DNA of 64,000 nt from a candidate division WOR-3 bacterium. Its GTDB lineage: Bacteria > Hydrothermota > Tepidihabitantia > B3-TA06. A program made the position numbers and the translations under genes. The notes under the pieces were generated by a model, which saw only the letters and a list, made by a program, of their open reading frames with translations, was not told the origin of the DNA and did not search any database. Location: NCBI GenBank assembly GCA_965649265.1, contig CBFGKC010000006.1, positions 114,975 through 178,974 of the forward strand. The letters are read 5' to 3'. This document shows, piece after piece, positions 14,454 through 60,295 of this stretch (positions are counted from its first letter, which is position 1; each line of letters begins with the position of its first letter).

Positions 14454-14670
14454 GCACATACCTACCTCCAGGCTTGCCTTTTTTGTATCTATAGTGTATA
14501 CCGAAACATGTGATTTGTCAAGCCCTTCTGTGAGCTTCTGGTCATCTAAGTCAAGCCAAAAAAACATCTGTAACCGTCAGCCCTCTCAGTCATATCCCGG
14601 CATTGGTCTTACAGACTGAGTTAATTGGAATAATATCCAAATCACAAGCAGAGAAAGATGTGTTACTGAG

Positions 14671-14905
14671 TCCTCCTCAGAAACCTCCTCAGAGCTACCC
14701 CTCAGTCTTCCTTACATCCCCGGCGCTCCTCATTGGATCAGTAATAATGAAACAGCAGAAGCCGGAGGGTTCTGCCAATGCGCCTCCGGCGCTCCTCATT
14801 GGAGAGTAGAAGTAAAATGGCGGAAGCGGAGCTTGCGCCCAGCGCCTTCGAGGCGCTCGCTCTCCTCAGAAATACCCTGACACATGTCTGACACACTGAG
14901 CTAAT
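14671..14905. repeat. Composite noncoding repeat element, locus 1 (CCTCAG-type short tandem repeats + GCGCCTCCGGCGCT hairpin modules)
   Basis: Its roughly 85-bp core, atgcgcctccggcgct..ttgga..gtagaa.t.aaatggcggaagcg.agcttgcgcccagcgcc, is shared with two copies at 51946..52170. It is flanked by ACTGAG(T/C)TAAT at 14622 and 14893. Confidence 0.6.
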
Positions 14906-15040
14906 CTTAGCGGTATGTTTCTATTTATGAGCTATGAGGGAGAAGGGGGGGCAGGAGCCCTCCTCAGAGACCTCTCGGTGTCGATTTTACATAATTTTCT
15001 GAGCGGAGTATCTTTCTATTCACGACCAATGAGGGATGGT

Positions 15041-15096
15041 GTGTTACGGGGGGGGGACGGGTGTTACGGGTGGGTGTTACGGGTGGCGTTACGGGG
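15041..15096. repeat. Short tandem repeat (GTGTTACGGG x4, the reverse complement of CCCGTAACAC) overlapping the rSAM stop codon
   Basis: The sequence reads gtgttacggg ggggggacgg gtgttacggg tgggtgttacggg tggcgttacgggg. The rSAM stop codon (TAA at 15089..15091, minus strand) lies inside the last unit. The same unit recurs at 48003..48081 and 58790..58830. Confidence 0.6.
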
Positions 15097-17278: not shown

Positions 17279-17307
17279 GTTTTACTGTACCTCACTTTTC
17301 CGGACTG

Positions 17308-17865: not shown

Positions 17866-17929
17866 AAAATTCCTCCTTGACTGCGACTACTCCTGTTATA
17901 CAGTTGCAGGTGCAATAAATTCCCTTAAC

Positions 17930-18469: not shown

Positions 18470-18476
18470 GATACTG

Positions 18477-19016: not shown

Positions 19017-19031
19017 TGTGCCTCCGGTGAT

Positions 19032-19547: not shown

Positions 19548-19629
19548 GGTTCCTCCTTTCACTGTATTAAATATAATCAACTTGCTCGGATTGTCAATCC
19601 ATGAAAATCACCTGAAATCCTGGCAGGTG

Positions 19630-20157: not shown

Positions 20158-20726
20158 AACGAGTCCTTTTCAGTGATAAATAGCGGTAATGAAACCAGTG
20201 CTTCTTCACCCTTGGAAGTGGCCGCGTGCACGTAGACGAAGGTGGTCCCGGGTTTAAGACCCGCGACGCTGATGCGTGCCTCAATCATCTCGACGGTATC
20301 CGAGAAGCGGCCGTCCACAGGGTACATCCGGATTTTCCTTGACGTATCAATGGCCATTACGAGCCAAGCATCCGACACGTAATTGTTCTCAAGGCCAGGT
20401 TCCAGCACCCTTGCGGTGCCCGTTATCTTGACAGTGTGCACGCCCCTTGTCGGGTTCGGGCTTGCCTGAACTACTGAGATTTCGGGATCCATCCTTCTCA
20501 TCATGTAACATGTGTGGACAGGACCGTCGCCGTCTCCTCCTGGTCCGGGTCTTGCCTTTTTCCCGCACGAGGCTATCAGGGCGACAACGAGCCCGAGTAG
20601 CGAAACCTTCAAAAAGCGCGCGGTCTTTGAAAATATTGGAGTATCCTGGCATCTCGATAGCGCATTAAACACCAGATTACCTGCATTTCTGAGAACTGCA
20701 ATCAAGCTCTTTCTCATCTTTGCCAT
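20154..20726 (-). CDS. Array paralog 5/12
   Basis: It reads MAKMRKSLIAVLRNAGNLVFNALSRCQDTP, then a TM helix, then a Gly/Asp-rich insert (PGPGGDGDGP), then VHTCYMM...PNPTRGVHTVKITGTARV. Confidence 0.6.
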   Translation of the reverse strand: MAKMRKSLIAVLRNAGNLVFNALSRCQDTPIFSKTARFLKVSLLGLVVALIASCGKKARPGPGGDGDGPVHTCYMMRRMDPEISVVQASPNPTRGVHTVKITGTARVLEPGLENNYVSDAWLVMAIDTSRKIRMYPVDGRFSDTVEMIEARISVAGLKPGTTFVYVHAATSKGEEALVSLPLFITEKDSL

Positions 20727-20745
20727 TCTGCCTCTCCTATCTCGT

Positions 20746-21288
20746 TTAATCTGGTTCAGTAATCACCAGTTCTAAAGATTCAATTTCAATTTGACCGGAA
20801 GAATTTTCTACCTCTAAGTATATCCATGTCGTTTCCGGCTCAAGGTCTCCAACGTAAAGTCGGCCGACTATTCTCTCCGAAGCGGCGTCGAATTTCCCGT
20901 CAATCGCCCGCATGGGGTAATATATTGTATCTCCATCCATTCTCATGCGGGCTGAGCTTATCGTGCTTTCGCCGCTGTAGTGATCGCTAATCTTTGCCGT
21001 GGCCTTGACGGTTACCGAATCGGCGCCCCTTGTAGGGTTAGGCCTTACGGAAAGTTTGGATAGTTCTATGAGGGGAGGGGGGGCGGGCTTGTAGCACATT
21101 ATGACGTCTTCCTTTGCTTCGAGCGAGAGAGCGCTCACGAGTGCCACGAAAAATCCGAGGAATGTGAGCTTCAACCATCTTGCCGCCCCGGGGAGGATGC
21201 GGCGTTCCTCGAATCCGGAAAACGTTCCGAAAAGCCTTCCGCCAATCCTTGCAAAAAAGTCTGCCAGGCGTTTTCTGAGTTCAGGCAT
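20746..21288 (-). CDS. Array paralog 4/12
   Basis: It reads MPELRKRLADFFARIGGRLFGTFSGFEERRILPGAARWLKLTFLGFFVALVSAL, then IMCYKP...PNPTRGADSVTVKATAKI. Confidence 0.6.
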   Translation of the reverse strand: MPELRKRLADFFARIGGRLFGTFSGFEERRILPGAARWLKLTFLGFFVALVSALSLEAKEDVIMCYKPAPPPLIELSKLSVRPNPTRGADSVTVKATAKISDHYSGESTISSARMRMDGDTIYYPMRAIDGKFDAASERIVGRLYVGDLEPETTWIYLEVENSSGQIEIESLELVITEPD

Positions 21289-21289
21289 A

Positions 21290-21859
21290 TCAATCCTCCT
21301 TATTCTCGTTGCTGTCCGCTTCCGGTGCGGTGATGATTAATTGCCTCCAGGTGCTTTCCGCGTTGCCTGAGTTTGTCCTCACCACTATGTAAATCCAGGT
21401 GGTCTCCGGCTTGTGATCCCCGACGTAGAGACGGCCTTCGACTGTTTCAAGGGTATCGCCGAACTTACCGTCAACCGCTTTCATCGGATATAAAAGGGTA
21501 TCTCCGGTAAGCTGCATAATTGCTTCGGAAACAGCGGTGTCACCTGAGCAATAATATGCAGATTCCAATTTTGCGGTTGCCTTGACTGTAACGGTGTCTT
21601 TTCCTGCAGTGGGGTTCGGTGTTGCCGAGACATCGAAGATACTTAAGTGAGGTTCCTCAATAGGCACGTAGCACATGATGATATCGTCGTCCGCCTTGAG
21701 CGCTGGCGCGCCCAGCAGGGTTACCAGCAATCCCAGAACCGAAAGCTTTAGCCATCTTGCCGGTCTGCGTAGGATACCGCGTTCCTCCAATCCGGACAGT
21801 ATCCCGAATAAGGAGCCGCCTATCCGTGAAGAGATGCGGGCCAGTAAGCCTTTTGTCAT
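21290..21859 (-). CDS. Array paralog 3/12
   Basis: It reads MTKGLLARISSRIGGSLFGILSGLEERGILRRPARWLKLSVLGLLVTLLGAPAL, then IMCYVP...PNPTAGKDTVTVKATAKL. Confidence 0.6.
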   Translation of the reverse strand: MTKGLLARISSRIGGSLFGILSGLEERGILRRPARWLKLSVLGLLVTLLGAPALKADDDIIMCYVPIEEPHLSIFDVSATPNPTAGKDTVTVKATAKLESAYYCSGDTAVSEAIMQLTGDTLLYPMKAVDGKFGDTLETVEGRLYVGDHKPETTWIYIVVRTNSGNAESTWRQLIITAPEADSNENKED

Positions 21860-22435
21860 CTACTCCTCCCTGGCAGCGCTCGAATCAGCTGCGAGCGAAT
21901 CAATCCTTGTTACGGTGTAGGACTGCCAAAGAATCTCTTCATCTTCTCTGGAACTCGTCACGTCTATAAAGAACCAGTGGGTGCCGGTATCCAGGTCGCC
22001 TGTGTAAAACATGGCCTCAAGAACCTCAAGAGTGTCGTTAAGCTTGCCGTCCACGGCCTTCATGGGAATCCTCAGGGTGTCACGCTGCCTGGAAAGCCAG
22101 GCGTTTCGGATGTAATTGTTCTCAAGGGTCGGGTCCAGAACTTTTGCAGTTACCTTTACTTTTACCGAGTCCGCTCCTCGAGTCGGATTTGGTGTGATGG
22201 ACACATCCGAAATCTTTACCTCCGGCATCCTCATGGCTACGTAACAGGTCTTAATTGTTTCTACCTCGGCGGAAAGTGCTCCGATGGCTGCGGTAAGAAA
22301 TCCAAGCAGTGAGAGCTTTAACCAGCGCGAAGCGCTGGGCACAATCCCGCGCTCTTCGAATCGCGACAGGAGTGAAAAGAGACCTCCTCCCAGCACTTCA
22401 AGAATCCTTACGACGAACCCTTTCGTTCTCGCCAC
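21860..22435 (-). CDS. Array paralog 2/12 (GTG start)
   Basis: The track ORF 21860..22654 carries a non-homologous 73-aa N-terminal extension. The paralog alignment starts at the GTG at 22435 (VARTKGFVVRILEVLGGGLFSLLSRFEERGIVP), preceded by GGTGGAG. The start lies 1 nt after the stop of paralog 1. The ectodomain reads KTCYVA...PNPTRGADSVKVKVTAKV. Confidence 0.55.
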   Translation of the reverse strand: MARTKGFVVRILEVLGGGLFSLLSRFEERGIVPSASRWLKLSLLGFLTAAIGALSAEVETIKTCYVAMRMPEVKISDVSITPNPTRGADSVKVKVTAKVLDPTLENNYIRNAWLSRQRDTLRIPMKAVDGKLNDTLEVLEAMFYTGDLDTGTHWFFIDVTSSREDEEILWQSYTVTRIDSLAADSSAAREE

Positions 22436-22436
22436 G

Positions 22437-23009
22437 TCACTCCACCTTTGTCGAATCAGTCCTGATAGAATCAGGCTCCGAGACTTCAAAATAAAACCAG
22501 CTCGCTTCCAGTGCATCCTGGGATGTCTGGACGAGCATTGAGATCGAGTACTGGCCCGGTTCAAGATTTCCAACGTAAACCGTACCCTCGAGCACCTCGA
22601 GCGTGTCGTCCATCTTGCCGTCAAGTGCTTTGACCTTGAACCTCGTCGTATCACCGTCCCAGGAGAGCCAGGCGTCCTTTATGAAGTTATCCTTGATATT
22701 CGAGTACATCACCTTGGCCTGGGCCTTCACTTTCACCGAATCCGCTCCCTTCGTGGTATCAGGGGTTACGGACTTCTCTGTTATGATGACGTCGGGAATC
22801 CTCGCGACGATGTAGCAGGTGACTTCCGGATCCCTGGCTTGAAGTGAGAGTGTCGCGACTAGCGAGGCTATGATTCCCAGGGTCGAGATCTTTATCCATC
22901 TCGCGGCACGCGGCATGACGCCTTTTTCTTCTATCATTGTCAGAAAATGGAAAATTGCATCTCCCAGTTTCCCTAACAGCCTGGATAAGAGGTTGCGTGT
23001 CTTGGCCAT
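22437..23009 (-). CDS. Array paralog 1/12 (first gene of operon)
   Basis: The ORF is trimmed to the ATG at 23009 (MAKTRNLLSRLLGKLGDAIFHFLTMIEEKGVMPRAARWIKISTLGIIASLVATL), preceded by AAAGGAG. The ectodomain reads VTCYIV...PDTTKGADSVKVKAQAKV. Confidence 0.6.
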   Translation of the reverse strand: MAKTRNLLSRLLGKLGDAIFHFLTMIEEKGVMPRAARWIKISTLGIIASLVATLSLQARDPEVTCYIVARIPDVIITEKSVTPDTTKGADSVKVKAQAKVMYSNIKDNFIKDAWLSWDGDTTRFKVKALDGKMDDTLEVLEGTVYVGNLEPGQYSISMLVQTSQDALEASWFYFEVSEPDSIRTDSTKVE

Positions 23010-23059
23010 CGTCGCTCCTTTAATTCTCAATACAAGAAAACATCTCAAATATTCCCCAC

Positions 23060-23088
23060 AATATAAGCCCCAAAAGACAGGTGTCAAG
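23060..23088 (-). promoter_or_regulatory. Candidate sigma70 promoter for the 12-paralog/rSAM operon
   Basis: On the minus strand it reads TTGACA-N16/17-TATATT (the plus strand shows tgtcaa at 23083..23088 and aatata at 23060..23065). It lies about 50 nt upstream of the first paralog's start. Confidence 0.4.
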
Positions 23089-32929: not shown

Positions 32930-33373
32930 GGTTCCTCCTTTGGTTTTGGCATACGTTGGCAGTATAGACAGCCGGTTAAAGTTGTCAATACGGAATTTTC
33001 CGGGTGTACTTAGGTAGAATAGAGGATGTCCTCCTTATCGAGAGGGGGTACTACCCCTCTTCGTTCTTGGATGAGGCTGCGCTTCAAGGAAGCGCCGGGT
33101 GAGGGTTCCTCACTAACTGGAAGGGGGGAGGGGGAATCACTTTCTTCCTACCTTGGTGGAGGGGGCGGGGCGACCTCGTAGGGGCTTACGTGGATGCTTC
33201 TGCATCCGCTTCGCGTTAGGTGAGCCCGCAAAAAAACGGGCTGACCTGAAGGTCGGCTCCTGCACTTTGCGAGGCTGCGCCCGTTAAAGAATTTGATATT
33301 GCAGAGTAAACCTAATTGCTTTGATAATCCTCGATTATCTTCCCATGATCGAAACAAATGTCACCCCAAGTAA

Positions 33374-33793
33374 TTACTTCGTAATTTCTTGGGGACCCCG
33401 ATTGATGTAATCACGGATGATTGTTGAGTGATCAAACGTAATCTGTTCCGGTAATGTATCCAGCTTAAAGACGCGGGCGAGCTTCGCGTCGTCGCCTTCG
33501 CGTAACACACCCTTGCCGTCGGCGGTGAAGACGACGGATACGGTATGGAAGCGGGGATCGCGCGAGGGTTCGGAGTAGACGTGGAACTGCTCGAGATTGT
33601 CCAAATCGAGTCCGGTCTCCTCCTTCATCTCCCTGCGCACGGCCTGCTCGACCGTCTCGCCTATCTCGACGAACCCGCCCGGCAGCGCCCACCCCGGGGG
33701 AGGGTAGCGTCTCTCGACAAGGATAATCCCGCCTTCGTACCGGATGATGCAGTCAACGGTCAGGTATGGGGTTTTGGGCGGCGACCAGGTCAT
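33374..33793 (-). CDS. NUDIX hydrolase
   Basis: The Nudix box is present (LPGGFVEIGETVEQAVRREMKEETGL). Confidence 0.8.
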   Translation of the reverse strand: MTWSPPKTPYLTVDCIIRYEGGIILVERRYPPPGWALPGGFVEIGETVEQAVRREMKEETGLDLDNLEQFHVYSEPSRDPRFHTVSVVFTADGKGVLREGDDAKLARVFKLDTLPEQITFDHSTIIRDYINRGPQEITK

Positions 33794-33810: not shown

Positions 33811-33957
33811 ACAATCGTTTTGTTGCCGCAATGACACGGTCATTGCACTCCACACGGACTTGTTGCCGCAATGACACGGTCATCGCACTCCACACGGACT
33901 TGTTGCCGCAATGACGCGGTTATCGCACTCCACACAGACTTTGTTGCCGCAATGGCG
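33811..33957. repeat. Tandem 40-bp repeat x3.6, each unit with an 8-bp-stem hairpin (GCAATGAC-acg-GTCATTGC)
   Basis: The units tgttgccgcaatgacacggtcattgcactccacacggact sit at 33811, 33851 and 33891, with a partial fourth. The copies degenerate from 5' to 3'. It lies between the polA stop and the NUDIX start. Confidence 0.7.
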
Positions 33958-33998
33958 CGGTCATAATCGATCTGCGTAGTTCTTGAATCAAATAATCC

Positions 33999-44344: not shown

Positions 44345-44644
44345 ATTACCCCAAAATAATACTCCGTATTCTTTTGGGGACCCCGTAAGACACGAAAGCG
44401 CGAATCCCACACAAGCCCCTTCAGATTTTCCTCAGCCCTCCTCAGCCCCCCTCACTCTCCCCTCAACTCGCCTCAGTTCCCCTCAGCCTTCCTCGGTTCT
44501 TTACGTATTGGCATCGCGCGTGATTTGTAAATTTGTCGTCGATCGCGAACAATCAATCTCTTAATTATTTCTAACCCTTTTATTTGTCGCGGCTGATTAT
44601 TTTTATGAGGATGTGAATCGCAGGCGTAGTTGTGGAAGAAGGGG

Positions 44645-44724: not shown

Positions 44725-46359
44725 TTACTTTACGATAGTTACCTTTGCGGTCCTGGTACCCGCGCCGTTGTCGAGCCTGACGAAATAGACTCCTGTTGGA
44801 ACATGACGTCCCACATCGTCCGTGCGATTCCAGGAGAGCGTGTGATTGCCAGCGCTCGCCTCGGTGCTCGCAAGCATCCGCACCAGCCTGCCCGACGCGT
44901 CGAATACGGAAAGTGTCATGCTTCCGGCCTTCGGCAATTGGTAGTTGATGCGGACGCTGCCCGATGCCGACATATCGTTCACCGAAAGACTCAGCTCGCG
45001 AACCATCTCCATTGTTTGCGATTGCGGGGTCTCAACCTCGTTGCTTGAGGGGGGGAGGGGTATTGTCGAAAGTCCGAGAAGCTTCTGTGAGGTCTCGAGC
45101 TTCCGTATCTTTTCCGTGACCGCCTTGTAATCGGTCTTCTGCTCCCTGCCCTTTACACGCGCGATGGCCATCCAGCTGAAGGTCGCGTTGAGGTCGCCTA
45201 CCTCGGATACCGCGGTGAATCCTCTTGTCGTCACGTCCTTCACGTATATGCCCGAGTAGGATCCCTCGGGTGTCACTATCACTTTGATCGGTATCTGACT
45301 CGATATCACCTGCGGGTACGGTTCCTCGAACTCTATCCTTGCAATGCCGTTGGAAAGCTTCGTGCGTCCCGATATGGTGTATTCGGGATACGGTGCTTCG
45401 GTGGCCGACATGGTCACCCAGGTGCCGTCGTCCATCTTGATCACGTTGTCCTTGTCGCCCGTTACGTAAAGGTCACCCTGTATAAGGACGTCTCCTAAAA
45501 AGTTGCCTGCATAGGGGGTGCCGACGATTTCGATTCCGGCATTCGCGGTTCCGATATATACGTAGTTCGATCCAAGTCCTTTGATGTATGCGCCCCAGTT
45601 GCTGCCTGCAAGGGCTGCTTCGGAGCCGTTTACGTGAAGGAATTGTCCCGCCAGAGAGCTTGTAGATGCCGCGTAAGCGTACAACCCCCTGGTCGAACTG
45701 CCCAGGTATGCGTTGTTGCCGTTATTATTTCGACCGAACACTCCGTAACTTGCGGAACCTATATATCCGTAGTTGCCCGATGAGCTTCTGCCGTATACCC
45801 CGTAGGAAGAATGACCCAGTATCCCGTAATTCGAATTTGAATTCGCTCCGTATGCGCCGTAAGTCGAGGAGCCAAGATAGGCGTAATTCCCGTTGCCGTT
45901 CGCGGCATAGGCAGCGTAGTCATTCGAACCTATATATCCATAGTTGTTGCTCGAGGAATCCTTGCCATAGACCCCGTAGTCGGTGGAAGCCAGATAACCG
46001 TAGTTGCCCAGGTTATGACTGCCGTATGCCCCATAGCTGAAGGAACCCAGATATCCGAGATTCCCTGATGAGTACTTGCCGTATGCGCCGTAGCCGATTG
46101 AAGCGATGTGCCCCTGGTTTCCCGAATAGTGCTCGCCGTACACGCCGAACAAGGTGTATCCCAGATAACCCAGGTTTCCGTTCGCGTTCTCTCCATACGC
46201 GCCGAAGTAGAAGTGACCCAGATATCCAACAGTCGAGGACAGTGTAGAGGTTCCTTTTACTCCCCAGTAATCACCTGAACCTTCCACCTGTACGGCGAAA
46301 AGGTTTATGCAGGCGAGCATTACACTCGCGATGACGACGAGTTTTTTTATTGTGGACAT
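44725..46359 (-). CDS. Secreted Tyr/Gly-rich tandem-repeat protein with T9SS CTD
   Basis: The signal peptide is MSTIKKLVVIASVMLACINLFA. About 11 consecutive units of roughly 15 aa follow (GYLGSFSYGAYGSHNLGNY / GYIGSNDYAAYAANGNGNY ...). The C-terminus is GVYFVRLDNGAGTRTAKVTIVK. Confidence 0.65.
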   Translation of the reverse strand: MSTIKKLVVIASVMLACINLFAVQVEGSGDYWGVKGTSTLSSTVGYLGHFYFGAYGENANGNLGYLGYTLFGVYGEHYSGNQGHIASIGYGAYGKYSSGNLGYLGSFSYGAYGSHNLGNYGYLASTDYGVYGKDSSSNNYGYIGSNDYAAYAANGNGNYAYLGSSTYGAYGANSNSNYGILGHSSYGVYGRSSSGNYGYIGSASYGVFGRNNNGNNAYLGSSTRGLYAYAASTSSLAGQFLHVNGSEAALAGSNWGAYIKGLGSNYVYIGTANAGIEIVGTPYAGNFLGDVLIQGDLYVTGDKDNVIKMDDGTWVTMSATEAPYPEYTISGRTKLSNGIARIEFEEPYPQVISSQIPIKVIVTPEGSYSGIYVKDVTTRGFTAVSEVGDLNATFSWMAIARVKGREQKTDYKAVTEKIRKLETSQKLLGLSTIPLPPSSNEVETPQSQTMEMVRELSLSVNDMSASGSVRINYQLPKAGSMTLSVFDASGRLVRMLASTEASAGNHTLSWNRTDDVGRHVPTGVYFVRLDNGAGTRTAKVTIVK

Positions 46360-46702
46360 TGTTGCCTCCTATGGTCGTTTTTTATGGAGACAGGGAAACA
46401 CCGACATTGTGCCCCGGAAAATCACGTTGTGTTTTTCCGCTCGTCCCGCCCATACTGCTTGACTCGATGCCAGCAATGGGACCTCCTGCTATCCACAAAT
46501 CCTCCTGCGGTCGAACGAAAGCGGCGCACGACGCTGGTTCGACCCGGCGCCATCCGGGCGCGTCCTAAAAATAACGGAAGTAACACTTCCGCCAGGCGCC
46601 TTCCGGGCGCAAGCCCTCCTTGCTGTCTCGCAAGTTTATGGTATACCTGCAATACAGCCGCCGCAGGATTTTATTCCATTTAATTAGACCGGGCCGCACA
46701 AG

Positions 46703-46730
46703 TTGACCTCGTTTCCAAAGCCCGTATAAT
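46703..46730 (+). promoter_or_regulatory. sigma70-like promoter (TTGACC-16-TATAAT) abutting the start codon
   Basis: ttgacc is at 46703..46708 and tataat at 46725..46730. The ATG at 46739 sits 8 nt after the -10 element, which makes this a leaderless candidate. Confidence 0.45.
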
Positions 46731-46738
46731 CGAGCGTT

Positions 46739-47998
46739 ATGGAGCACATCCCACTCCTTGCGAAGCTCGGAATTATCTTCGGCGTCATCATCGTCGTCAT
46801 GGTATTCAGGCTGCCCACGTTCGTGCCAATCCTTTTGGGCGCTGTCGTCACCGGCGTCCTCTTCACCATGCCCGCGCTCGATATCGGAAGAACATTCCTC
46901 GACAGCGTAATAGACTTCTACACCATTGACACCATCCTCATCGTCTGCTTCATCGAGATTCTCGGCAAGATGATGAAGGAGCGCGGCATCCTCTCGCGAT
47001 TCGCCGGCGGCGCCGACTACCTTCTGCGGGGCTCTCGCGTGAGCGTGGTCACGATCCCCATGTTCGTCGGCCTCCTGCCAATGCCGGGCGGCGCCTACTT
47101 CACCGCACCCATGACCGAGGAGCAGATAAAACCCTACGGAATAAAGCCCGGGCTCGCGGTCTACATCAACTACTGGTTCCGGCACGTGTGGGAGTACTTC
47201 TGGCCGCTTTACCCCGGCCTCATCGTGGGCTTCGCCATCCTCAAGGACGTCACCGTCGGCTCCGTCATCATCCACCAGTCGTTCGTGACACTGCTCGCGA
47301 TTGCGGCGGGCGCCGTCATCATCTTTGCCTTCGTCAAGCGCAGGGTGGTGCGGCCGGAGCGTCTTGCGGGCAAGGGTCGTTCTTCCACAAAAGACGTGCT
47401 CTACGGCGCGTTCCCTCTACTCATCATCGTCGTCCTCATCGTGGTCACGCAGGCGCTTGGCTCCATAGTCAAGATTCCCGTTTCCTCCGTCATGCTGATC
47501 GTGCTGGTCTCTTCGTGGATATTCTACAAGGTTCCATTGAAAGGTTCAGGCAAGCTCATTCTTTCCGCGCTCGACTGGCGCGTGATCTCGCTCATGGCGT
47601 CGGTCATGTTCTTCAAGTACATGCTCGACCGTTCGTCCGCGCTGACCGGGCTCGGCCCGATGCTTGCAGGGGCCCCCTCCTCCCTCATCATCGCCATGAT
47701 AATGTTTCTTCCCTTCGTGGTCGGACTCCTCGTGGGACTCAACCAGGCGTACGTTGCCACGACGTTTCCCCTGCTCGCGCCCTTCATCGGCCATGACCCC
47801 GGACTCGTCATGCTCGCGTACGCGTTCGGGTTCTTCGGCGTGATGCTCTCGCCCTCGCACCTCTGCCTTGCCTTATCGCGCGAGTACTTCAAGGCGAGCT
47901 GGGGCTCGGTGTACAAGTGGTTGGTGCCCTCAGTGATCGCGGTCGCCGTCGTGACGTTCGCCGTGTGGTTCTTCCTGTTCCCGCATCCTAAACTATAG
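46739..47998 (+). CDS. Polytopic membrane transporter-like protein (DUF401/ion-transporter-superfamily-like)
   Basis: It is 419 aa with about 10-12 hydrophobic helices. Internal two-fold similarity is apparent. The family assignment is tentative. Confidence 0.45.
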   Translation: MEHIPLLAKLGIIFGVIIVVMVFRLPTFVPILLGAVVTGVLFTMPALDIGRTFLDSVIDFYTIDTILIVCFIEILGKMMKERGILSRFAGGADYLLRGSRVSVVTIPMFVGLLPMPGGAYFTAPMTEEQIKPYGIKPGLAVYINYWFRHVWEYFWPLYPGLIVGFAILKDVTVGSVIIHQSFVTLLAIAAGAVIIFAFVKRRVVRPERLAGKGRSSTKDVLYGAFPLLIIVVLIVVTQALGSIVKIPVSSVMLIVLVSSWIFYKVPLKGSGKLILSALDWRVISLMASVMFFKYMLDRSSALTGLGPMLAGAPSSLIIAMIMFLPFVVGLLVGLNQAYVATTFPLLAPFIGHDPGLVMLAYAFGFFGVMLSPSHLCLALSREYFKASWGSVYKWLVPSVIAVAVVTFAVWFFLFPHPKL

Positions 47999-48002
47999 AT
48001 AC

Positions 48003-48081
48003 CCCCCGTAACACCCCCCCCCGTAACACCCCTCCCGTAACACACCCCCGTAACACACCCCGTAACATGCTCCGTAACACG
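48003..48081. repeat. Short tandem repeat, CC(C)CGTAACAC x6
   Basis: The unit cgtaaca sits at 48007, 48022, 48036, 48049, 48061 and 48073, separated by C-rich spacers. The array lies immediately after the transporter stop at 47998. Confidence 0.65.
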
Positions 48082-49141: not shown

Positions 49142-49535
49142 GGGCCGACCTAAAGGTCGGCCCCTACGTTGTGTTAGTCATAAGGTGCATTTGTACCCTT
49201 CGTTCGCCCTTCGGTGGCTTCGTAGCCACTCGGGGTTGCATGTGCGGAACTACGTTCCACGAAGACTATTTCCAATTAAGGAGTATCGCCAGGGGTGATT
49301 TCGTCATCTTCGATTGCGGAAGGAACTTCCGCCCATGCGGATTCCATCCGCTCGCTCGCCAACGACAATCTAATGAATCCCCCTTGCCTTTCGGGCGTTC
49401 CCCCTTAATAAGGGGGATGTTACGGCCCCCCTTCGATAAGGGGGGAGCGGGGGGATTCTCCCGGTCTTCGTCTCTCGTTTAATGGGAGGGAAAGTCAACC
49501 CCTCCTCTTAATCCTCTTCGCAAGGGGGAGGAGGT
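49142..49535. other. Cluster of perfect GC-clamped hairpins in noncoding DNA
   Basis: The hairpins are GGGCCGACC-taaa-GGTCGGCCC (49142..49163), GTGGCT-tcgt-AGCCAC (49214..49229), CCCCCTTA-at-AAGGGGG (49400..49416), CCCCCCTT-cgat-AAGGGGGG (49426..49445) and CCTCCTC...GAGGAGG (about 49501..49535). Confidence 0.55.
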
Positions 49536-49591: not shown

Positions 49592-49765
49592 CCCCCAAAA
49601 TGCCCTCAAAACCCCGGTTTTGTCCATCTTTTGTCCCACTTTTGACCAGCTTTTTTTTCACGAAAATTGCCCCAAAATGCCCGATTTGTCCATCTTTTGA
49701 CCATCTTTTGTCCCACTTTTTTTATGCCCCACAAAATTGCTGCGCAATTTTGCGGGGACCCCATT
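49592..49765. repeat. Dispersed noncoding repeat, copy 2 (TTTGTCCATCTTTTGTCCCACTTTTGACCAGCTTTTTTT plus internal partial duplication)
   Basis: The core matches 4666..4727. It carries an extra half-copy (TTTGTCCATCTTTTGACCATCTTTTGTCCCACTTTTTTT) and ends in the hairpin CCCCACAAAATTGC-tgc-GCAATTTTGCGGGG followed by ACCCC. Confidence 0.55.
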
Positions 49766-51102: not shown

Positions 51103-51738
51103 TTAGTTATCGGTAAGTTTGAAATTTACGGGAACCGAAATCTTGACGGCCAGCGGTTTTTCGCCCTGCATTGCCGGTGTAAAGCGCGCGTTGCGAACGG
51201 CTTCCTCCGCGGCGTTATCAAGCTCTTCATATCCGGAACTCTTCAATATTTGTGTGTCGAAGACAAGCCCTTGTTCGTCCAGTGCCGCACCGACTATGAC
51301 CAATCCCTCAACTTCCAATTTACGCATCCGTTCAGGATACTTGATATCCATTCCCCCGATAAGTTGCGGTTTTTTTGCACTTGCAGGTAAAAAGGGGACA
51401 TCGTTGATGGTTCTGATGATTCTGTCGCCGCCGATGATTCCGGGGTCAATCAAATTTGTATTTCCAGGGAGAATGGAATCAGCGGTCTGGCCAGGTGCAG
51501 CTTTCTCAATCTGGACCACTTTGTTGTCGATGGGAGGAGGAGTGTTGGGGTAGTTCTCGACGGTGATTCCGCCCCAGTCGATGATATCGCTGCCTGAAAC
51601 CGGTTTAACGTTCAGGGGTTTGATCGTAAAGCTTCCAAGGAACGCGAAAATTAGTATAGACGCTCCCAGCGCTCCAATCACTCCCACTTGCAGTCTTTCG
51701 GTTGCATGTTCGCGGATGGTGGCAATTTTTGCTTGCAT
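51103..51738 (-). CDS. tonB: TonB-family energy transducer (C-terminal TonB domain)
   Basis: The ORF is trimmed to the ATG at 51738 (MQAKIATIREH), preceded by AAGGAGG. A TM anchor is present (VGVIGALGASILIFAFLGSF). The C-terminal domain reads IGGMDIKYPERMRKLEVEGLVIVGAALDEQGLVFDTQILKSSGYEELDNAAEEAVRNARFTPAMQGEKPLAVKISVPVNFKL. Confidence 0.7.
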   Translation of the reverse strand: MQAKIATIREHATERLQVGVIGALGASILIFAFLGSFTIKPLNVKPVSGSDIIDWGGITVENYPNTPPPIDNKVVQIEKAAPGQTADSILPGNTNLIDPGIIGGDRIIRTINDVPFLPASAKKPQLIGGMDIKYPERMRKLEVEGLVIVGAALDEQGLVFDTQILKSSGYEELDNAAEEAVRNARFTPAMQGEKPLAVKISVPVNFKLTDN

Positions 51739-51827
51739 TTCATCCTCCTTTGCATTGTTATACATCTTGTCCCAAGGTTTATTCCGCTCTCCATGATTTG
51801 TAATCGTGAATCGCATAAGCTTATGCA

Positions 51828-52178
51828 AATGCGCCCCCGGCGCTAGCCCTCCTCAGACCCCCTCAGACCCTCCTCAGACCCTCCTCAGACTATCCTCAGA
51901 CTATCCTCAGACTATTGGGGGCTCAACACCTTGCAGAATTCTATTCTGCGCATGCGCCTCCGGCGCTAGCCCTTTGGATAAGTAGAAATGAAATGGCGGA
52001 AGCGCAGCTTGCGCCCAGCGCCTCCGGCGCTCCTCCTTAGATCGGTAATAGTGAAATCGCAGAAACCCCATGGGCTTCTGCGCATGCGCCTCCGGCGCTA
52101 GCCCTTTGGATAAGTAGAAATGAAATGGCGGAAGCGCAGCTTGCGCCCAGCGCCTCCGGCGCTAGCCCTGACTCAACA
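51828..52178. repeat. Composite noncoding repeat element, locus 2 (6x CC(C/T)xCCTCAGA units, then 2.5 copies of the GCGCCTCCGGCGCT-containing module of about 85 bp)
   Basis: The CCTCAG-type units lie at 51848..51917. The modules at 51946..52030 and 52086..52170 are near-identical to 14766..14850. It sits in the divergent region between tonB and the SBBP gene. Confidence 0.65.
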
Positions 52179-52260
52179 CACAGTCGAAACAATCTGAATA
52201 GCATCTTCCTAAGTCATCTATAATATGCGGAGCTTTTTTTGTAAGTATTTATGCCGCATA

Positions 52261-52288
52261 TTGACAAATTACCCTTACATCGTATCAT
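52261..52288 (+). promoter_or_regulatory. sigma70-like promoter (TTGACA-16-TATCAT) preceded by an 8-bp inverted repeat overlapping the -35 element
   Basis: ttgaca is at 52261..52266 and tatcat at 52283..52288. The inverted repeat ATATGCGG (52223..52230) / CCGCATAT (52254..52261) flanks it. An AAGGAGGAG Shine-Dalgarno site precedes the ATG at 52314. Confidence 0.45.
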
Positions 52289-52313
52289 TTTGCAAACGAG
52301 AAGGAGGAGTATT

Positions 52314-53723
52314 ATGAAACCTATGTGTTTTCTTTCAATAACGTTTTCGTGTATATTTTTTTTCCTCTCCACGGTCGTACGCGCCGAGGATGTTCCCGTT
52401 AACGTCTGGAACAAGGTCTATGATTCAGGCAAGAACGACGTACCTTACGCTATTGCGGTGGATGATTCGGGCTACGTTTACGTCGCGGGACTTTATTACA
52501 ATGGTGAGAACAGCGATTTCAGAACCATAAAATTCGACCCGGACGGGGAGATTGCATGGAACAAAACATTCGGGCCTGCAACCGAAGATATTGCCTGGGC
52601 GGTTGCGGTCAGCAGTACGGGTTCGGTATACGTTGCAGGTGAATCCAAGGATGCCTACGAACTGGTCAAATATGACTCGAAAGGAACCGAACTCTGGAAC
52701 AAATCATACGAATCCCAGTATAAATATTCGGACGCGGCGTACGGGATAGCCCTGGATGAGGATAACGGTTTTTGTTACCTTACCGGCAAGGTTCACAACA
52801 CGGCTACCGGAAACAACGATTACAGGACAATAAAATGCGATACATCCGGCAACAAGAAATGGGACAACAAATACGATTCGGGCGCAGATGACTGCGCATA
52901 CGGGGTGACAGTAGACAAAGACGGTAACGCTTACGTGACAGGCGGCATCAACTCCGACACGAGTGTGATGACCGTCAAGTATGGTCCTACCGGAAATACC
53001 GTCTGGAAAAAAACATACTCCGGAGGCGATAAAAATGTTGGATATTCCATAATAACAGATAATGGCGGTTCTTTTTATGTCGCCGGAATGTCGAAAAGCA
53101 GTGCCGGGAATATGGATTATCGCACCGTCAAATACGATCTTGCCGGAAATATGAAATGGGAGAAGCTATATGGATCGAGTAACAATGAGTTTGCCTGTGA
53201 TGTTGCGCTTGATGACAAGGGTTTCTTGTACGTAACAGGTTCATATTACGAGGGGTCATATCCTTTCTCCAGAACCATGAAGTACGATTCTCTTGGAAAC
53301 ATCCAGTGGGAGTTTGCTTATGATCAAGGCTCGAGGGAAGAAAGCGAGGGCGTAGCCGTGGATGCTGACGGGAACATCTACATCATCTGTAAATCTTACA
53401 ACGGCAAGGATAACGATTTCAGGCTTTTAAAATATCGGCAGTCTTCAGGGATAGCGGAAACGTTTTTTAAACCTGAAGATATGAATCTGGAACTTGAAAA
53501 TAAAGGATCCTTTTGGACTGTAGCCTACTCTCTTGTGGATTCCGGCCCAATAGAGCTGTCGATTTTTGATGTCAGAGGTACGAGGGTTGCAACGTTAGAT
53601 CACGGTTTTCGAAGCTCAGGCACACACTCTCTTGTCTGGATTCCGGAGGTAAATGGGGTATATTTCCTTAAGCTTTCGAAAGGGGCGAGCGTCGAAAACA
53701 GGAAAGTAGTGGTAATTCGCTAG
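52314..53723 (+). CDS. Secreted SBBP-type beta-propeller repeat protein with T9SS CTD
   Basis: The ORF is trimmed to the ATG at 52314 (MKPMCFLSITFSCIFFFLSTVVRA). The repeats follow the pattern YDSG..D.AYAIAVDDSGYVYVAG......DF.TIKYD.DG...W. The C-terminus is GVYFLKLSKGASVENRKVVVIR. Confidence 0.65.
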   Translation: MKPMCFLSITFSCIFFFLSTVVRAEDVPVNVWNKVYDSGKNDVPYAIAVDDSGYVYVAGLYYNGENSDFRTIKFDPDGEIAWNKTFGPATEDIAWAVAVSSTGSVYVAGESKDAYELVKYDSKGTELWNKSYESQYKYSDAAYGIALDEDNGFCYLTGKVHNTATGNNDYRTIKCDTSGNKKWDNKYDSGADDCAYGVTVDKDGNAYVTGGINSDTSVMTVKYGPTGNTVWKKTYSGGDKNVGYSIITDNGGSFYVAGMSKSSAGNMDYRTVKYDLAGNMKWEKLYGSSNNEFACDVALDDKGFLYVTGSYYEGSYPFSRTMKYDSLGNIQWEFAYDQGSREESEGVAVDADGNIYIICKSYNGKDNDFRLLKYRQSSGIAETFFKPEDMNLELENKGSFWTVAYSLVDSGPIELSIFDVRGTRVATLDHGFRSSGTHSLVWIPEVNGVYFLKLSKGASVENRKVVVIR

Positions 53724-53887
53724 TTTCCAAACAGGGGCTTTATAATAACTATTAATCGGTGCGAAGCTAAGCCGATTTTTTAGTCACGGAGGCCTTGACT
53801 AAATGCTGAATGTTGGTATATTTTCAAGAGTAATCTAGTCGTGTTGGGAATAAGAGGGCCAGAAAACAATAAAACTTTGGAGGTTAT

Positions 53888-55546
53888 ATGTCAAAAAACA
53901 AGTTTTTGTTACTGTGCATAGTTACCCTCGTGACAATGAGTTCCGGGTATGCTGTTTTGCCTCCGGAGGAGGTTTGGAACGTACCATACAGCTCAGGGGA
54001 CTTCGTGAGAGGTTATGATCTCGCAGTTGATGCACAGGGAAATGTATTCGTCGCAGGCGAGTACGATAACGGCATGGATAATGATTTTCTTATCATCAAA
54101 TATGACCCTTCAGGTACGGTATTGTGGTACAGGATTTTCGACTCCGGTGGAAATGATGAACCGCAGTCGATAATCCTTGACGCCGGCGGTAACGTTTACG
54201 TCTGCGGCTCTTTCGTGGATACTCTCGTACCCGGAACCGTTCACGCAAGACTTCTTAAGTACAATTCCGCCGGGGACAGCCTTTTAAACGCATCGTACGG
54301 TTTTTCGGCTTTCACCAGGCTGTACGCCGTAACCATTGATAAATCGGGCGGCCTTTATCTGGCCGGCTACACGACGAATCCATCGAACTCGGATTTTCTA
54401 TTCATGCAATGCGATACGATTACCGGCGACACTCTCTGGACAAAAGTTTATGATTCAGGAAGGGAAGAGAGTGTCTACGGTATTGCGGTCGATACGCTCG
54501 GTAACATTTTCGTGACCGGGACTGCAGGAGCAGATGCCGATACCACGGACGTAAGGACCATTAAATACGGTCCTACTCGCACTATTTTGTGGAACGAGCT
54601 CTACAACTCCGGCAGCTACGATGACGCCGGGGATCTTTCGCTTGACGGACAGGGCAACGTTTACGTCGGCCTTTCGAGCTACAACTCGTCAGGGAATGCC
54701 GACTATAGATTAATCAAGTACGACTCCGGCGGTGGTATTGTCTGGAACAAATATTATGACGCCGGCTCCGAGGACTGGCTGAATGACGTGATTTGCGATG
54801 AATCGGGTAACGCCTACATAACCGGTATGTCACTAAGCGGGCCGACCAACAGTGACATAAGAACCATGAAATATACACCTGACGGGGATATCGAATGGTA
54901 TAAGGTCTACGACTCTGGAACCCGTTTCAACGCCTTGTTAGGAGATGGTGCCAGTGGCATTGTTCTTGACGGACTCGGCTATGTTTATGTTACTGGTTAC
55001 TACGCGACACCAGGCAGCGTGAGTATCCGCACAATAAAGTACAGGCAGTTTTTTACCATAGCCGGTAAAACAAGTCAGCCCTATGCTACCTTGAATCTTG
55101 ATGGAGCCGTTACTGCCCAGACAATGTCCGATTCGAACGGCTACTACCAGTTTCTCGATCTTTCTTGCGGAAAGGATTACACGGTTACACCCAGTCTTGA
55201 TGGTTATACCTTTGAACCGTCATACAGGAAATATTCTCCTCTTATAAGCCACATGTTTCTTGAGGATTACACTGCTACACCGACTGGAATTGAAGACCTT
55301 TCGCAAATACGAGCAATTTCGCTCGAGGTATCCGCAAATAATGTAAGATACACTATCGATGAGCCCGGATTCGTAAAGCTTAGCGTTTACGATGCATGCG
55401 GCCGCAATGTTGCGTCCCTTTTCGAAGGCATCCTTTCACCGGGAGAGTTCAATGCCGACTGGAAACCACAGGCTGCCGGGGTCTACTTCGTCAAGTTGGA
55501 CGTGTCGAACAAATCGGTAACAAAAAAGATAACTTTCATAAAGTAA
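53888..55546 (+). CDS. Secreted SBBP-repeat protein with CarboxypepD_reg-like domain and T9SS CTD
   Basis: A GGAGG site is followed by the ATG. SBBP-like repeats are present (GYDLAVDAQGNVFVAG ... DFLIIKYDPSG). A carboxypeptidase-regulatory-like segment follows (YQFLDLSCGKDYTVTPSLDGYTFEP). The C-terminus is GVYFVKLDVSNKSVTKKITFIK. Confidence 0.65.
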   Translation: MSKNKFLLLCIVTLVTMSSGYAVLPPEEVWNVPYSSGDFVRGYDLAVDAQGNVFVAGEYDNGMDNDFLIIKYDPSGTVLWYRIFDSGGNDEPQSIILDAGGNVYVCGSFVDTLVPGTVHARLLKYNSAGDSLLNASYGFSAFTRLYAVTIDKSGGLYLAGYTTNPSNSDFLFMQCDTITGDTLWTKVYDSGREESVYGIAVDTLGNIFVTGTAGADADTTDVRTIKYGPTRTILWNELYNSGSYDDAGDLSLDGQGNVYVGLSSYNSSGNADYRLIKYDSGGGIVWNKYYDAGSEDWLNDVICDESGNAYITGMSLSGPTNSDIRTMKYTPDGDIEWYKVYDSGTRFNALLGDGASGIVLDGLGYVYVTGYYATPGSVSIRTIKYRQFFTIAGKTSQPYATLNLDGAVTAQTMSDSNGYYQFLDLSCGKDYTVTPSLDGYTFEPSYRKYSPLISHMFLEDYTATPTGIEDLSQIRAISLEVSANNVRYTIDEPGFVKLSVYDACGRNVASLFEGILSPGEFNADWKPQAAGVYFVKLDVSNKSVTKKITFIK

Positions 55547-55684
55547 CTGTTTTTTCTAAACACAAGGATTTGAGCAGGGGCGTTCATGAACCGCCCCTGT
55601 CTCTTTTTGTACTGAAACGGTATCTTCTTGGAATTTCTGCACGACCAGGGACGTAAGGCGCATTTCGTTTTTTAATAGATTCTG

Positions 55685-55713
55685 TTGACACTGCGTATGC
55701 AATACATATAATC
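55685..55713 (+). promoter_or_regulatory. Consensus sigma70 promoter (TTGACA-17-TATAAT) abutting the atpC start
   Basis: ttgaca is at 55685..55690 and tataat at 55708..55713. The ATG at 55722 sits 8 nt after the -10 element, which makes this a leaderless candidate. Confidence 0.5.
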
Positions 55714-55721
55714 TTTTTAAG

Positions 55722-58787: not shown

Positions 58788-60295
58788 TGCCCCGTAACAC
58801 CCGTAACACACCCAATCCCTCCCATAACACCTCCCAAACTCTTGAGGAAACCTCTGGTTTAAAGCCTACTGTGGAAGATAAACCCAAGGGTATAATCGAT
58901 TACCAGACGATTACCTCTGTTTCTGGTCCACTCCTTCTCGTTGAGGGAGTCGAAGGAGTCAAGTATGAGGAGCTTGTTGAGATATTCCTTCCCTCAGGCG
59001 AACGCCGCAGGGGAAGGGTGCTTGAGGTTAACCAGGACAAGGCGCTCATACAGATATTTGAGGGTTCCTCGGGAATCGAGATAGGCCAGACAAGGGTACG
59101 CTTTCTTGGCAAGGGCATAACCTTGGGGGTCTCCGAGGAACTTCTCGGCCGCGTATTCGACGGCCTGGGCCGCCCGCGCGACAGCTCACCCGAGCTTATC
59201 CCTGAAGAATTTCGCGACATCAACGGTCTTCCAATCAATCCCTTCGCTCGCAGCTACCCCAACGAGTTTATCGAGACAGGCATCTCCGCTATAGACGGAT
59301 TGAACACGCTAGTACGTGGGCAGAAGCTTCCTATCTTCTCCGGTTCCGGTTTGCCGCACAACCGCATGGCGGCTCAGATAGCGCGTCAGGCAAAAGTACT
59401 CGGCGCAGCGGAGGAGTTTGCGGTGGTGTTCGGCGCAATGGGCATCACGTTCGAGGAAGCCCAGTTCTTTATCGATGATTTCCGCCGTACAGGGGCCCTT
59501 GAGCGCGCGGTACTCTTTCTTAACCTTGCGGACGACCCTGCAATCGAGCGAATCGCGACACCGCGTGTTGCGTTCACCGCAGCGGAGTATCTCGCCTTTA
59601 CGAAGAATTATCACGTCCTCGTTATCCTCACAGACCTGACCAATTACTGCGAGGCCCTTCGTGAGATATCCGCCGCCCGAAAGGAGATTCCCGGTCGGCG
59701 CGGTTACCCCGGCTATCTATACACCGATCTTGCCACCATCTACGAGCGATCAGGCCGCATCAAGGATTCGACCGGTTCCATAACCCTCGTTCCCATTCTC
59801 ACCATGCCCGAGGACGACAAGACCCACCCTATTCCAGACCTTACCGGGTATATCACCGAGGGGCAGATCATCCTTTCCCGCGTACTCAATAACAAGAACG
59901 TCGCTCCGCCGGTAGACGTACTCCCCTCCCTCTCCCGTCTCAAGGACAAGGGTATAGGCAAGGGAAAAACTCGCGAGGATCACGCGGATTCGTTTAACCA
60001 GCTTTACGCCGCGTATGCACGAGGCAAGGAAGCCCAGGAACTGGCCGTGATTCTCGGTGAGGCGGCGTTGACCGATATCGACAAGCTTTACATGAAATTT
60101 GCCGAGGCGTTCGAGCGCCGCTACATTTCCCAGGGCGAGTACGAGGCTCGCAGCATCGAGGAGACACTTGATTTGGGTTGGGAGCTTTTGACCAGTCTTC
60201 CGCGTTCGGAGATGAAGCGCGTTCGGGACGAAAACCTTGCAAAGTATTACGATACCGCGTTCGCAAAATTCCAGAAGACCGGGGAGAAATCATAA
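58787..60295 (+). CDS. atpB: V-type ATP synthase subunit B
   Basis: The product is 502 aa and closely follows the B-subunit pattern ([20 protein letters not shown]). It starts in an ATGA overlap with atpA. Its first roughly 30 codons are an N-terminal extension ([15 protein letters not shown]...) that is partly encoded by CCGTAACAC repeats. Confidence 0.85.

Follow-up and report, generated by a model that had tools for sequence, protein, structure and literature searches.

A modular double-hairpin intergenic repeat family with variable copy number in an uncultivated relative of the WOR-3/TA06 candidate divisions

Introduction

To our knowledge, small interspersed repeats have been characterised almost solely in proteobacteria, firmicutes and cyanobacteria. 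REP and BIME elements are known to stabilise transcript ends or terminate transcripts and to provide sites for DNA-topology proteins. REPs number tens to hundreds of copies per genome and flank the gene of a RAYT. In REPINs, two REPs in inverted orientation fold together into a single long hairpin, and a RAYT transposase is required (PMC3116915, PMC3337134); compensatory changes are found in their hairpins (PMC3116915). The BOX elements of Streptococcus pneumoniae are composed of boxA-boxB(n)-boxC, and their length varies between strains with the number of internal tandem modules. Stem-loops are predicted in BOX, slippage or unequal crossover has been proposed for the change in length and effects on the expression of neighbouring genes have been reported (PMC3049150). 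The end modules of BOX carry terminal inverted repeats, and target duplications are made (PMC3049150).

Here, we describe a repeat family in a 64-kb stretch of DNA (the window, meaning the whole stretch that was analysed). The window carries PolA, V-type ATPase, HisRS, KsgA, TatD and other housekeeping genes and is chromosomal; many secreted beta-propeller proteins with T9SS sorting tails are also encoded. The names on homologues of the window genes are candidate division TA06 or WOR-3, and the host lineage is an uncultivated relative of these divisions. The family is newly described and belongs to a known kind, the modular stem-loop intergenic repeats, of which it provides a worked example from an uncultivated lineage near WOR-3/TA06.

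Like BOX, the window family is composite and modular, and the number of units at one spacer differs (one in the relative L029, two in the relative L027 and five in the window); it differs from BOX in having neither inverted ends nor a duplication, in having two hairpins per unit and in showing no sequence similarity. With REP and BIME it shares short GC-rich extragenic palindromes, two alternating sub-types arranged in mosaics, conserved linkers and hairpins kept through compensatory changes. In contrast to REPINs, all units have the same, direct orientation on a single strand, and no RAYT was seen in the 64 kb. The family resembles MITEs (Correia/NEMIS, RUP) in being small, non-coding, dispersed between genes and polymorphic for presence or absence among relatives, but terminal inverted repeats, a target-site duplication and a clean empty site are lacking and growth is mainly tandem. 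Some units (A-type and DUF401-type) recall Rho-independent terminators, with a GC-rich stem-loop followed by a T-rich tract on the minus strand, and one of the repeat blocks (locus 1) lies just after a radical-SAM operon. However, most units have no proper T run, each has a second, invariant hairpin and, at two of the four sites, the flanking genes diverge and leave no transcript to be terminated.

Results

Extent and setting of the family

A preliminary description of the sequence had reported a composite, hairpin-bearing repeat at two distant loci. All of its listed sequence features are present in 51500-52700 and 14400-15200, and the observation is borne out by self-blastn and by a covariance model (CM). 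The model, R1 (seven units, 14 base pairs), was run with filters off over the whole window and identified nine units in the 64 kb, all on the plus strand and all intergenic. They occupy four sites: 14733-14863 (locus 1), 46569-46617, 49295-49358 and 51792-52169 (locus 2). In the rest of the 64 kb, the model found nothing at E<0.2 except an echo of the palindrome. The preliminary description had named the two main loci and a pair of related hairpins at 46.5 kb and had missed the unit at 49295-49358; the pair does belong to the same family, with true positions of 46547-46561 and 46596-46610 instead of 46537 and 46592.

Six copies of the motif GCGCC-N3-GGCGC are found in the window, where dinucleotide shuffles predict 0.06, an approximately 100-fold enrichment. 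With loops of 3-5 nt, there are nine GCGCC-GGCGC hairpins, intergenic throughout and starting at 14780, 14842, 46547, 46596, 51831, 51954, 52018, 52086 and 52150. The GCGCATGCGC palindrome is located at 51948 and 52080, and the core GGCGGAAGCG(C/G)AGCTTGCGCC at 14819, 51995 and 52127.

Locus 2 has tonB (51103-51738, minus strand; TonB_C, E 1e-21) on one side and a plus-strand SBBP/T9SS gene on the other. Locus 1 is situated between the end of a minus-strand radical-SAM/SPASM gene and the promoter of a 432-aa outer-membrane-type protein (OMP). The unit at 46.5 kb is flanked by a FlgD_ig/T9SS cargo gene (minus) and DUF401 (plus), and next to the 49.3-kb unit is an uncharacterised gene. Both main loci had been placed upstream of envelope genes; TonB is confirmed, but the OMP shows only a sub-threshold match to FadL/Toluene_X (E 0.03). 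A Pfam scan of the window ORFs gave no transposase or recombinase domain. RAYT (IS200/IS605-like Y1 transposase) is absent both from the window ORFs (Pfam) and from the gene tables of the relatives' loci, and no mobilising enzyme for the units was found. No candidate regulator gene lies beside any repeat block.

Anatomy of the unit

The unit is 64-68 nt long and consists, in this order, of a leader, hairpin 1, a spacer, hairpin 2 and a tail (Table 1). The leader is AT-rich, TT(T/A)GGAT..GTA(A/G)..TGAAAT. Hairpin 1 has a stem of 7-10 bp and a loop of 3-5 nt; its sequence is variable with pairing kept. After a spacer of 2-4 nt comes hairpin 2, GCGCC-NCC-GGCGC, whose sequence is nearly invariant in 11 of the 12 distinct units (per-pair table), and the unit closes with a TAGCCCT or TCCTCCT tail. 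The units alternate between two sub-types, A and B, with GGCGgAAGC/GCTTgCGCC as hairpin 1 in type A and GCAGAA.../...TTCTGC in type B. They are diverged copies of one unit, as seen from alignment and from the period-64 array that TRF detects at 51954-52169 (3.3 copies, 72% matches).

The units are joined to companion modules (CCCTCCTCAGA arrays and GTGTTACGG arrays) in differing orders. The tail TAGCCCT runs directly into the CCCTCCTCAGA arrays (TAGCCCT-CCTCAGA...), which extend the hairpin-2 tail. Degenerate CCTCAG arrays had been noted before both loci and are found there, three units at 14675-14705 and six copies with an 11-nt period at 51847-51912.

A repeat common to loci 1 and 2 does exist, but it consists of a dimer, B+A, with a length of about 132 nt (131-135 nt), and not of the 85-bp module first proposed. 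The self-blastn alignment pairs 14720-14850 with 52024-52158 (82% identity over 135 nt, E 1e-28). The tandem arrangement reported for locus 2 is also real, with a period of 132 nt, although the units at 51792-51850 and 51931-51973 had been overlooked. Positions 51944-52031 and 52076-52163 are 100% identical, so the duplicate within locus 2 is exact over 88 nt as compared to the 82% identity between the loci. The segment 14814-14866 matches 46568-46620 at 72% (self-blastn). No terminal inverted repeats bound either block and no inverted repeats of at least 12 nt span the blocks.

Table 1. Coordinates and parts of the repeat units and companion modules in the window
Feature	Position	Strand	Parts	Evidence and remarks
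Unit W1, B-type	51792..51850	+	leader GATTTGTAATCGTGAATC; hairpin 1 GCATAAGCTTATGC (51813-51826); AAAT; hairpin 2 GCGCCCCCGGCGC (51831-51843); TAGCCCT	CM R1 53.7 bits, E 1e-11; adjoins tonB promoter; orthologous to the single unit of L029 and the first unit of L027
CCCTCCTCAGA array	51847..51912	+	six 11-nt copies	TRF period 11, 6.1 copies, 92% matches; continues hairpin-2 tail
Unit W2, B-type without leader	51931..51973	+	hairpin 1 GCAGAAT-TCT-ATTCTGC; GCAT; hairpin 2; TAGCCCT	CM R1 35.2 bits; from 51944 identical to the B unit from 52076 on
Unit A, locus 2	51974..52036	+	leader TTGGATAAGTAGAAATGAAAT; hairpin 1 GGCGGAAGC-GCA-GCTTGCGCC (51995-52015), one G.G mismatch; CA; hairpin 2 (52018-52030); TCCTCCT	CM R1 72.9 bits
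Unit B, locus 2	52037..52105	+	leader TAGATCGGTAATAGTGAAATC; hairpin 1 GCAGAAACCC-CAT-GGGCTTCTGC (52059-52081); GCAT; hairpin 2 (52086-52098); TAGCCCT	CM R1 82.9 bits
Second unit A, locus 2	52106..52169	+	ends TAGCCCT; flank after it GACTCAACAC...	CM R1 79.5 bits; recent duplicate of 51974-52031; flank common to and collinear with L029
CCTCAG units before locus 1	14670..14706	+	three, degenerate
Truncated hairpin 2	14720..14732	+	3' half and tail CCGGCGCTCCTCA	left edge of the copied dimer (blastn)
Unit B, locus 1	14733..14799	+	hairpin 1 GCAGAAGCC-GGA-GGGTTCTGC (14755-14775); hairpin 2 (14780-14792)	CM R1 76.1 bits
Unit A, locus 1	14800..14863	+	hairpin 1 (14819-14839); hairpin 2 variant GCGCCT-TCG-AGGCGC (14842-14856); tail TCGCTCT	CM R1 40.5 bits
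Companion module	14956..15096	+	AGCCCTCCTCAG...ATCTTTCTA...GAGGGATGG, then GTGTTACGG(G) array (15033-15096)	TRF; local alignment to L027 tonB-SBBP spacer
Lone hairpin 2	46547..46561	+	GCGCC-ATCCG-GGCGC	just upstream of unit 46569..46617; kept in L030
DUF401-site unit	46569..46617	+	hairpin 1 CGGAAGT-AAC-ACTTCCG; CCAG; hairpin 2 GCGCCT-TCC-GGGCGC; tail AAGCCCT	CM R1 21.7 bits, E 0.002; kept in L030, L031, L032 and L034
Diverged unit	49295..49358	+	GCGGAAG-GAA-CTTCCGC; CCAT; GCGGAT-TCC-ATCCGC; TCGCTCG	CM R1 19.2 bits, E ~0.01, marginal; hairpin-2 stem altered on both sides
Free-standing 10-nt CCTCAG(C/N) array	44416..44488	+	no hairpin unit	TRF; blastn to 51845-51888, 82%; absent from the equivalent place in L030

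Maintenance of the hairpins

Pairing was tested on 12 distinct units. The alignment was registered by hand and fitted to the structure and its rows are paralogous copies, so that the pair counts lean towards structure: 95% of the hairpin cells hold standard pairs (88.5% in the shuffles), and both-sided changes are seen in 6 of 16 pairs, a number reached by 0 of 500 shuffles, whose mean is 1.5. In slid registers, just 33-51% of the cells are paired. RNAalifold recovers the bases of both stems (hairpins 1 and 2) from an unguided alignment. The both-sided changes include A-U to G-C at stem position 3 (GCAGAA/TTCTGC versus GCGGAA/TTCCGC), G-C to U-A in the tonB-proximal unit of the window (GCATAA/TTATGC) as compared to its orthologues in L029 and L027 and an entirely different hairpin-2 stem at 49315. 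Template switching in quasi-palindromes could yield such symmetric changes without selection. The non-Watson-Crick pairs are two wobbles on the plus strand and three on the minus strand; as there is no strand preference, the hairpins could matter in DNA, RNA or both. Folding of the element had been suggested as a check, and the energies of whole regions are not exceptional (z −0.3 to −2.0, no better than shuffles). The folding signal is meaningful for the local hairpins alone.

Orthologous loci in relatives

The contigs of the closest relatives are only about 1-2 kb long. A search of 215 kb of relatives' DNA for the units gave matches at the tonB and DUF401 sites only. Comparison of orthologous intergenic regions, also proposed in the preliminary description, revealed differences among relatives in the presence or absence of units and in their copy number. 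The tonB spacer contains one unit in L029 (TonB 82% identical), two in L027 (95%) and five in the window, with 0, 2 and 6 copies of the CCTCAG array, respectively. In L029, the single B-type unit is followed by GACTCA..., the sequence that stands after the last unit of the window (52169). L027 has B+A, then CCTCAG twice, then the GTGTTACGG-array module; its unit copies are decaying, with mismatches in both hairpins. The window has about 320 extra nt bounded on both sides by GCGCCNCCGGCGCTAGCCCT, and both flanks are collinear. Neither L030 (TonB 62%) nor L052 (57%) has units in the tonB spacer or SBBP genes; in both, tonB and the V-ATPase operon are immediate, divergent neighbours with a spacer of 137-145 nt between them. 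The upstream DNA of L028 and L051 is too short for this comparison.

At locus 1, the radical-SAM-to-OMP spacer of L036-L041 (OMP 91% identical) is 143 nt long and has no units. With respect to L036, about 570 nt of repeat modules in the window (14525 to ~15090) replace about 90 unrelated nt, and the homology ends exactly at the −35 hexamer of the OMP promoter (window 14524). The difference would be compatible with gain and with loss alike. The module AGCCCTCCTC...GAGGGATGG with its GTGTTACGG array is found at locus 1 in the window but in the tonB spacer in L027.

At the DUF401 site, the arrangement hairpin 2, leader, hairpin 1, hairpin 2 is kept in L030-L034 (DUF401 93% identical), and the window and L030 show strong conservation across the block 46530-46745 despite a TonB identity of just 62%. 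Lineages with DUF401 at ≤86% identity have neither the FlgD_ig gene nor the hairpins. These comparisons (tonB spacer, locus 1, DUF401 and the shuffled module) show a real family, mostly of young copies, that varies in copy number and is shuffled by recombination. The copies nearest tonB and at DUF401 are older. The conservation of the DUF401 unit at 62% TonB identity and the retention of the tonB-proximal unit in three lineages are more easily reconciled with a selected function than with passenger DNA alone.

Promoters and terminators

No sigma-70-like promoter is present inside the units of loci 1 and 2. The tonB core promoter (GGAATAA-N16-GTATwA, then AAAGGAGG and ATG) is located between the first unit and tonB and is invariant in five lineages, with or without units. 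The OMP promoter (TTGACA-17-TACACT, 14521-14493) is also conserved and abuts the repeat block. At both genes, the units are upstream of the core promoter, abutting it without overlap. Since the same promoters are conserved in relatives without units, the units are upstream passengers rather than leaders, and dispensable for the neighbouring minus-strand genes. The link to envelope genes looks incidental, as the units lie upstream of the core promoters and relatives with the same promoters have fewer units or none.

Read on the minus strand, the unit has the order hairpin 2, hairpin 1, T-rich tract. In A units, a one-mismatch stem is followed by ATTTCATTTCT or ATTTTACTTCT on this strand, which the B units do not have. 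A terminator scan passes one unit, the DUF401 unit on the minus strand (46594-46572 and TTATTTTT); at loci 1 and 2 no unit qualifies. Only locus 1 and the 49.3-kb site are located downstream of a minus-strand operon, and termination or 3'-end protection would make sense there. At the two divergent-promoter sites, the units could merely stop stray antisense transcription or absorb supercoiling.

Database searches and other candidates

Rfam gave no matches for the whole window at the gathering threshold, and in 51700-52350 matches at E up to 10 were at chance level only. An exact scan with the 21-mer core of the A unit, GGCGGAAGCGNAGCTTGCGCC, returned 14 matches among GTDB representative genomes and 12 among JGI metagenomes, each a single chance match with unrelated flanks. 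As this pattern is so strict that even the A unit of L027 fails by its last base, the scan weakly suggests that the family may be restricted to this lineage and absent elsewhere. Hairpin 2 with its tail has no match in viral contigs, and blastn of the repeat block against plasmids and phages gave none. For the TonB and SBBP proteins of the window, no identical protein was on record. A literature search with the hairpin-2 13-mer returned only an unrelated Chlamydomonas paper.

Several other assignments were rejected. The intervals between hairpin-2 copies themselves repeat (A, B, A) and Pfam scans of the window ORFs gave no cas domains, which excludes a CRISPR array; an integron attC array was discarded for the same repetition of the 'spacers' and for having no integrase. 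Small ORFs (e.g., ATGAAATGGCGGAAG...) differ in frame between the loci, have no ATG in L027 and no Shine-Dalgarno sequence, and in L030 indels that are not multiples of three disrupt the ORF 46384-46683. The leader matches a Fur box poorly by eye. The units do not mark the borders of inserted T9SS-cargo cassettes: the other cassette edges (7208-7437, 53724-53887 and 55547-55721) have no units, and the orientation of the units with respect to the cargo genes is inconsistent.

Discussion

The best explanation of the data is probably that these small, non-coding intergenic repeats of modular build form a lineage-specific family, REP/BIME- or BOX-like, which would expand through recombination or slippage from one hairpin-2 copy to another. 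The orthologous loci provide good evidence that tandem expansion and contraction and module shuffling have occurred. Blocks would grow and shrink via unequal recombination or replication slippage between the repeated 20-mers formed by hairpin 2 and its tail. Occasionally, a B+A dimer may have been copied into unlinked intergenic DNA, through ectopic recombination, template switching or a putative trans-acting enzyme. By analogy with REP/BIME and BOX (PMC3049150, PMC3116915), stable hairpins or cruciforms in the minus orientation might end or buffer transcription entering the next promoter. The hairpins may also protect 3' ends, as in REP/BIME and BOX elements.

The orthologous loci are direct evidence for fast gain, loss, tandem expansion and module shuffling between loci. 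Repeat blocks of this kind break short-read assemblies, can pass for sRNAs, CRISPR-like arrays or MITEs and could serve as strain markers. If the hairpins terminate or insulate beside tonB and outer-membrane genes, a change in copy number would be a cheap source of variation in surface-gene expression. A bolder reading, which we regard as doubtful, makes the double-hairpin unit an active copy-and-paste module, of a so far undescribed kind, recognised by its structure. Hairpin 2 and the tail would be the recognition and joining site of a trans-acting enzyme, new units and arrays would be laid upstream of promoters and copy number would tune or insulate surface and uptake genes (tonB, OMP, T9SS cargo). 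If true, this would be a contingency-type switch in an uncultivated phylum.

Functional readings of the unit itself have to be weighed against a modular repeat of variable copy number. The units could be a transcribed regulatory RNA, either a minus-strand sRNA or leader terminator-attenuator, with the DUF401/FlgD_ig copy as the original, or a plus-strand C-rich (CCUCC) anti-Shine-Dalgarno RNA, the other copies being duplicates that place their neighbours under the same control. The conservation of 46530-46745 in L030 at 62% TonB identity is consistent with such an RNA, as are hairpin 1 of that unit, which passes the terminator scan on the minus strand with its TTATTTTT tract, the T-rich tracts after hairpin 1 of the A-type units on that strand and the upkeep of both stems through both-sided changes. 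However, Rfam has no match, whole regions fold no better than shuffles and no sigma-70-like promoter is positioned for such a transcript at loci 1 and 2, where the units stand upstream of the conserved tonB and OMP promoters and thus outside the leaders. Copy number ranges from 0 to 5 in close relatives with the flanking genes unchanged, the L027 copies are decaying and the wobbles have no strand bias, and we judge a regulatory RNA unlikely. A little less likely still is a role of hairpin 2 (GCGCC-N3-GGCGC) as the palindromic operator of a dimeric DNA-binding protein, with the phased 10-13-bp arrays as more binding sites and the blocks as clusters of regulatory sites upstream of the promoters of cell-surface genes. 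The near-invariance of the hairpin-2 sequence in 11 of 12 distinct units would suit an operator, every block abuts the promoter of a minus-strand gene, the array period of 10-11 bp is about one helical turn and the neighbours encode TonB, the OMP and T9SS cargo proteins. Against this, the differing hairpin-2 stem of the 49295 unit still pairs (GCGGAT/ATCCGC), which argues for a readout of structure rather than sequence, and hairpin 1 varies freely with pairing kept; moreover, close relatives have the same promoters without units and no block has a candidate regulator gene beside it.

The preliminary description had favoured a MITE-like, non-autonomous transposon with ACTGAG(T/C)TAAT as an 11-bp target-site duplication. 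Both 11-mers exist, at 14615 and 14895, and the element is present at locus 1 of the window and absent in a close relative. Their interpretation as a target-site duplication is unsupported, as 11% of shuffles give a 10-of-11 match between the flanks and the window shows no enrichment of the pattern (2 observed versus 1.5 expected, one mismatch allowed). The empty locus of L036 restores no single ACTGAGYTAAT and offers no clean junction; all of 14525-15090 differs and the homology stops at the OMP −35 hexamer. With terminal inverted repeats also absent, we regard a MITE-like origin as very improbable. The structure of both blocks also speaks against an inserted transposon: the copied stretch starts in the middle of hairpin 2 (14720), and locus 2 is a tandem expansion between direct repeats rather than an insertion.

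Repeats and hairpins at gene ends

The arrays with an 11-nt unit, TTTTGTCCAnC, are each followed by a run of T and the hairpin GCCCCA...TGGGGACCCC. In contrast to the double-hairpin units, the intergenic repeat family whose copy number varies between close relatives, these arrays occupy the same gene-end positions in distant relatives, and the conserved placement suggests that array, T run and hairpin may together form conserved composite terminators. Hairpins of a second family, ACCCCAA...TTGGGGACCCCG, lie directly 3' of stop codons (for example, that of the ABC_tran gene at 44344) and are probably the usual terminator-type hairpins of the lineage.

Repeat arrays and gene insertions in the window and in loci of relatives (L030, with tonB and DUF401; L036, OMP locus)
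Feature	Sequence	Positions	Remark
TTTTGTCCAnC array	window	4653-4718	
TTTTGTCCAnC array	window	49593-49724	66-nt block present twice
TTTTGTCCAnC array	L030	12090-12129	
TTTTGTCCAnC array	L036	17179-17196	
ACCCCAA...TTGGGGACCCCG hairpins	window	11692-11729, 33363-33400, 44348-44385, 49726-49763	
GTGTTACGGG(G) / CCCCGTAACAC array, 12-14-nt unit	window	15033-15096	
GTGTTACGGG(G) / CCCCGTAACAC array, 12-14-nt unit	window	48001-48080	
GTGTTACGGG(G) / CCCCGTAACAC array, 12-14-nt unit	window	58791-58809	
T9SS-tailed protein gene insertion	window	52251-55546	missing in L030 and L052
T9SS-tailed protein gene insertion	window	44725-46359	missing in L042-L050
T9SS-tailed protein gene insertion	window	4886-7207	missing in L036

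In the GTGTTACGGG(G) / CCCCGTAACAC arrays, the G3 tracts are spaced in a way compatible with a G-quadruplex motif. The array at 58791 falls within the N-terminal part of V-ATPase subunit B as annotated, where it encodes (P/T)RNT repeats in the window and in L030 alike. About 12 paralogous genes of 175-205 amino acids each are arranged in tandem at 16113-23087, with a period of approximately 575-587 nt, immediately upstream of the radical-SAM/SPASM gene at 15089-16111; this order is kept in L036, and a Pfam scan of one paralogue gave no match. The interval between the NUDIX gene and polA carries a 40-nt tandem repeat (33820-33964; 3.6 copies, 93% identity).

Promoters of DUF401 and tonB

Only 8 nt separate the end of the DUF401 promoter, TTGACC-16-TATAAT (46703-46739), from the ATG, which implies that the mRNA would be leaderless or nearly so; the arrangement is also kept in L030 and L042. 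Upstream of tonB (51739-51795 and orthologues), GGAATAA-N16-GTAT(A/T)A is followed by AAAGGAGG and then the ATG. The whole motif is invariant in five lineages, with TonB protein identity down to 57%, and GGAATAA-N16-GTAT(A/T)A is likely the tonB promoter, with an unusual -35 element.

Insertions of secreted-protein genes

Compared with relatives that are otherwise syntenic, the window carries inserted genes for secreted proteins with T9SS sorting tails (two SBBP and two FlgD_ig).
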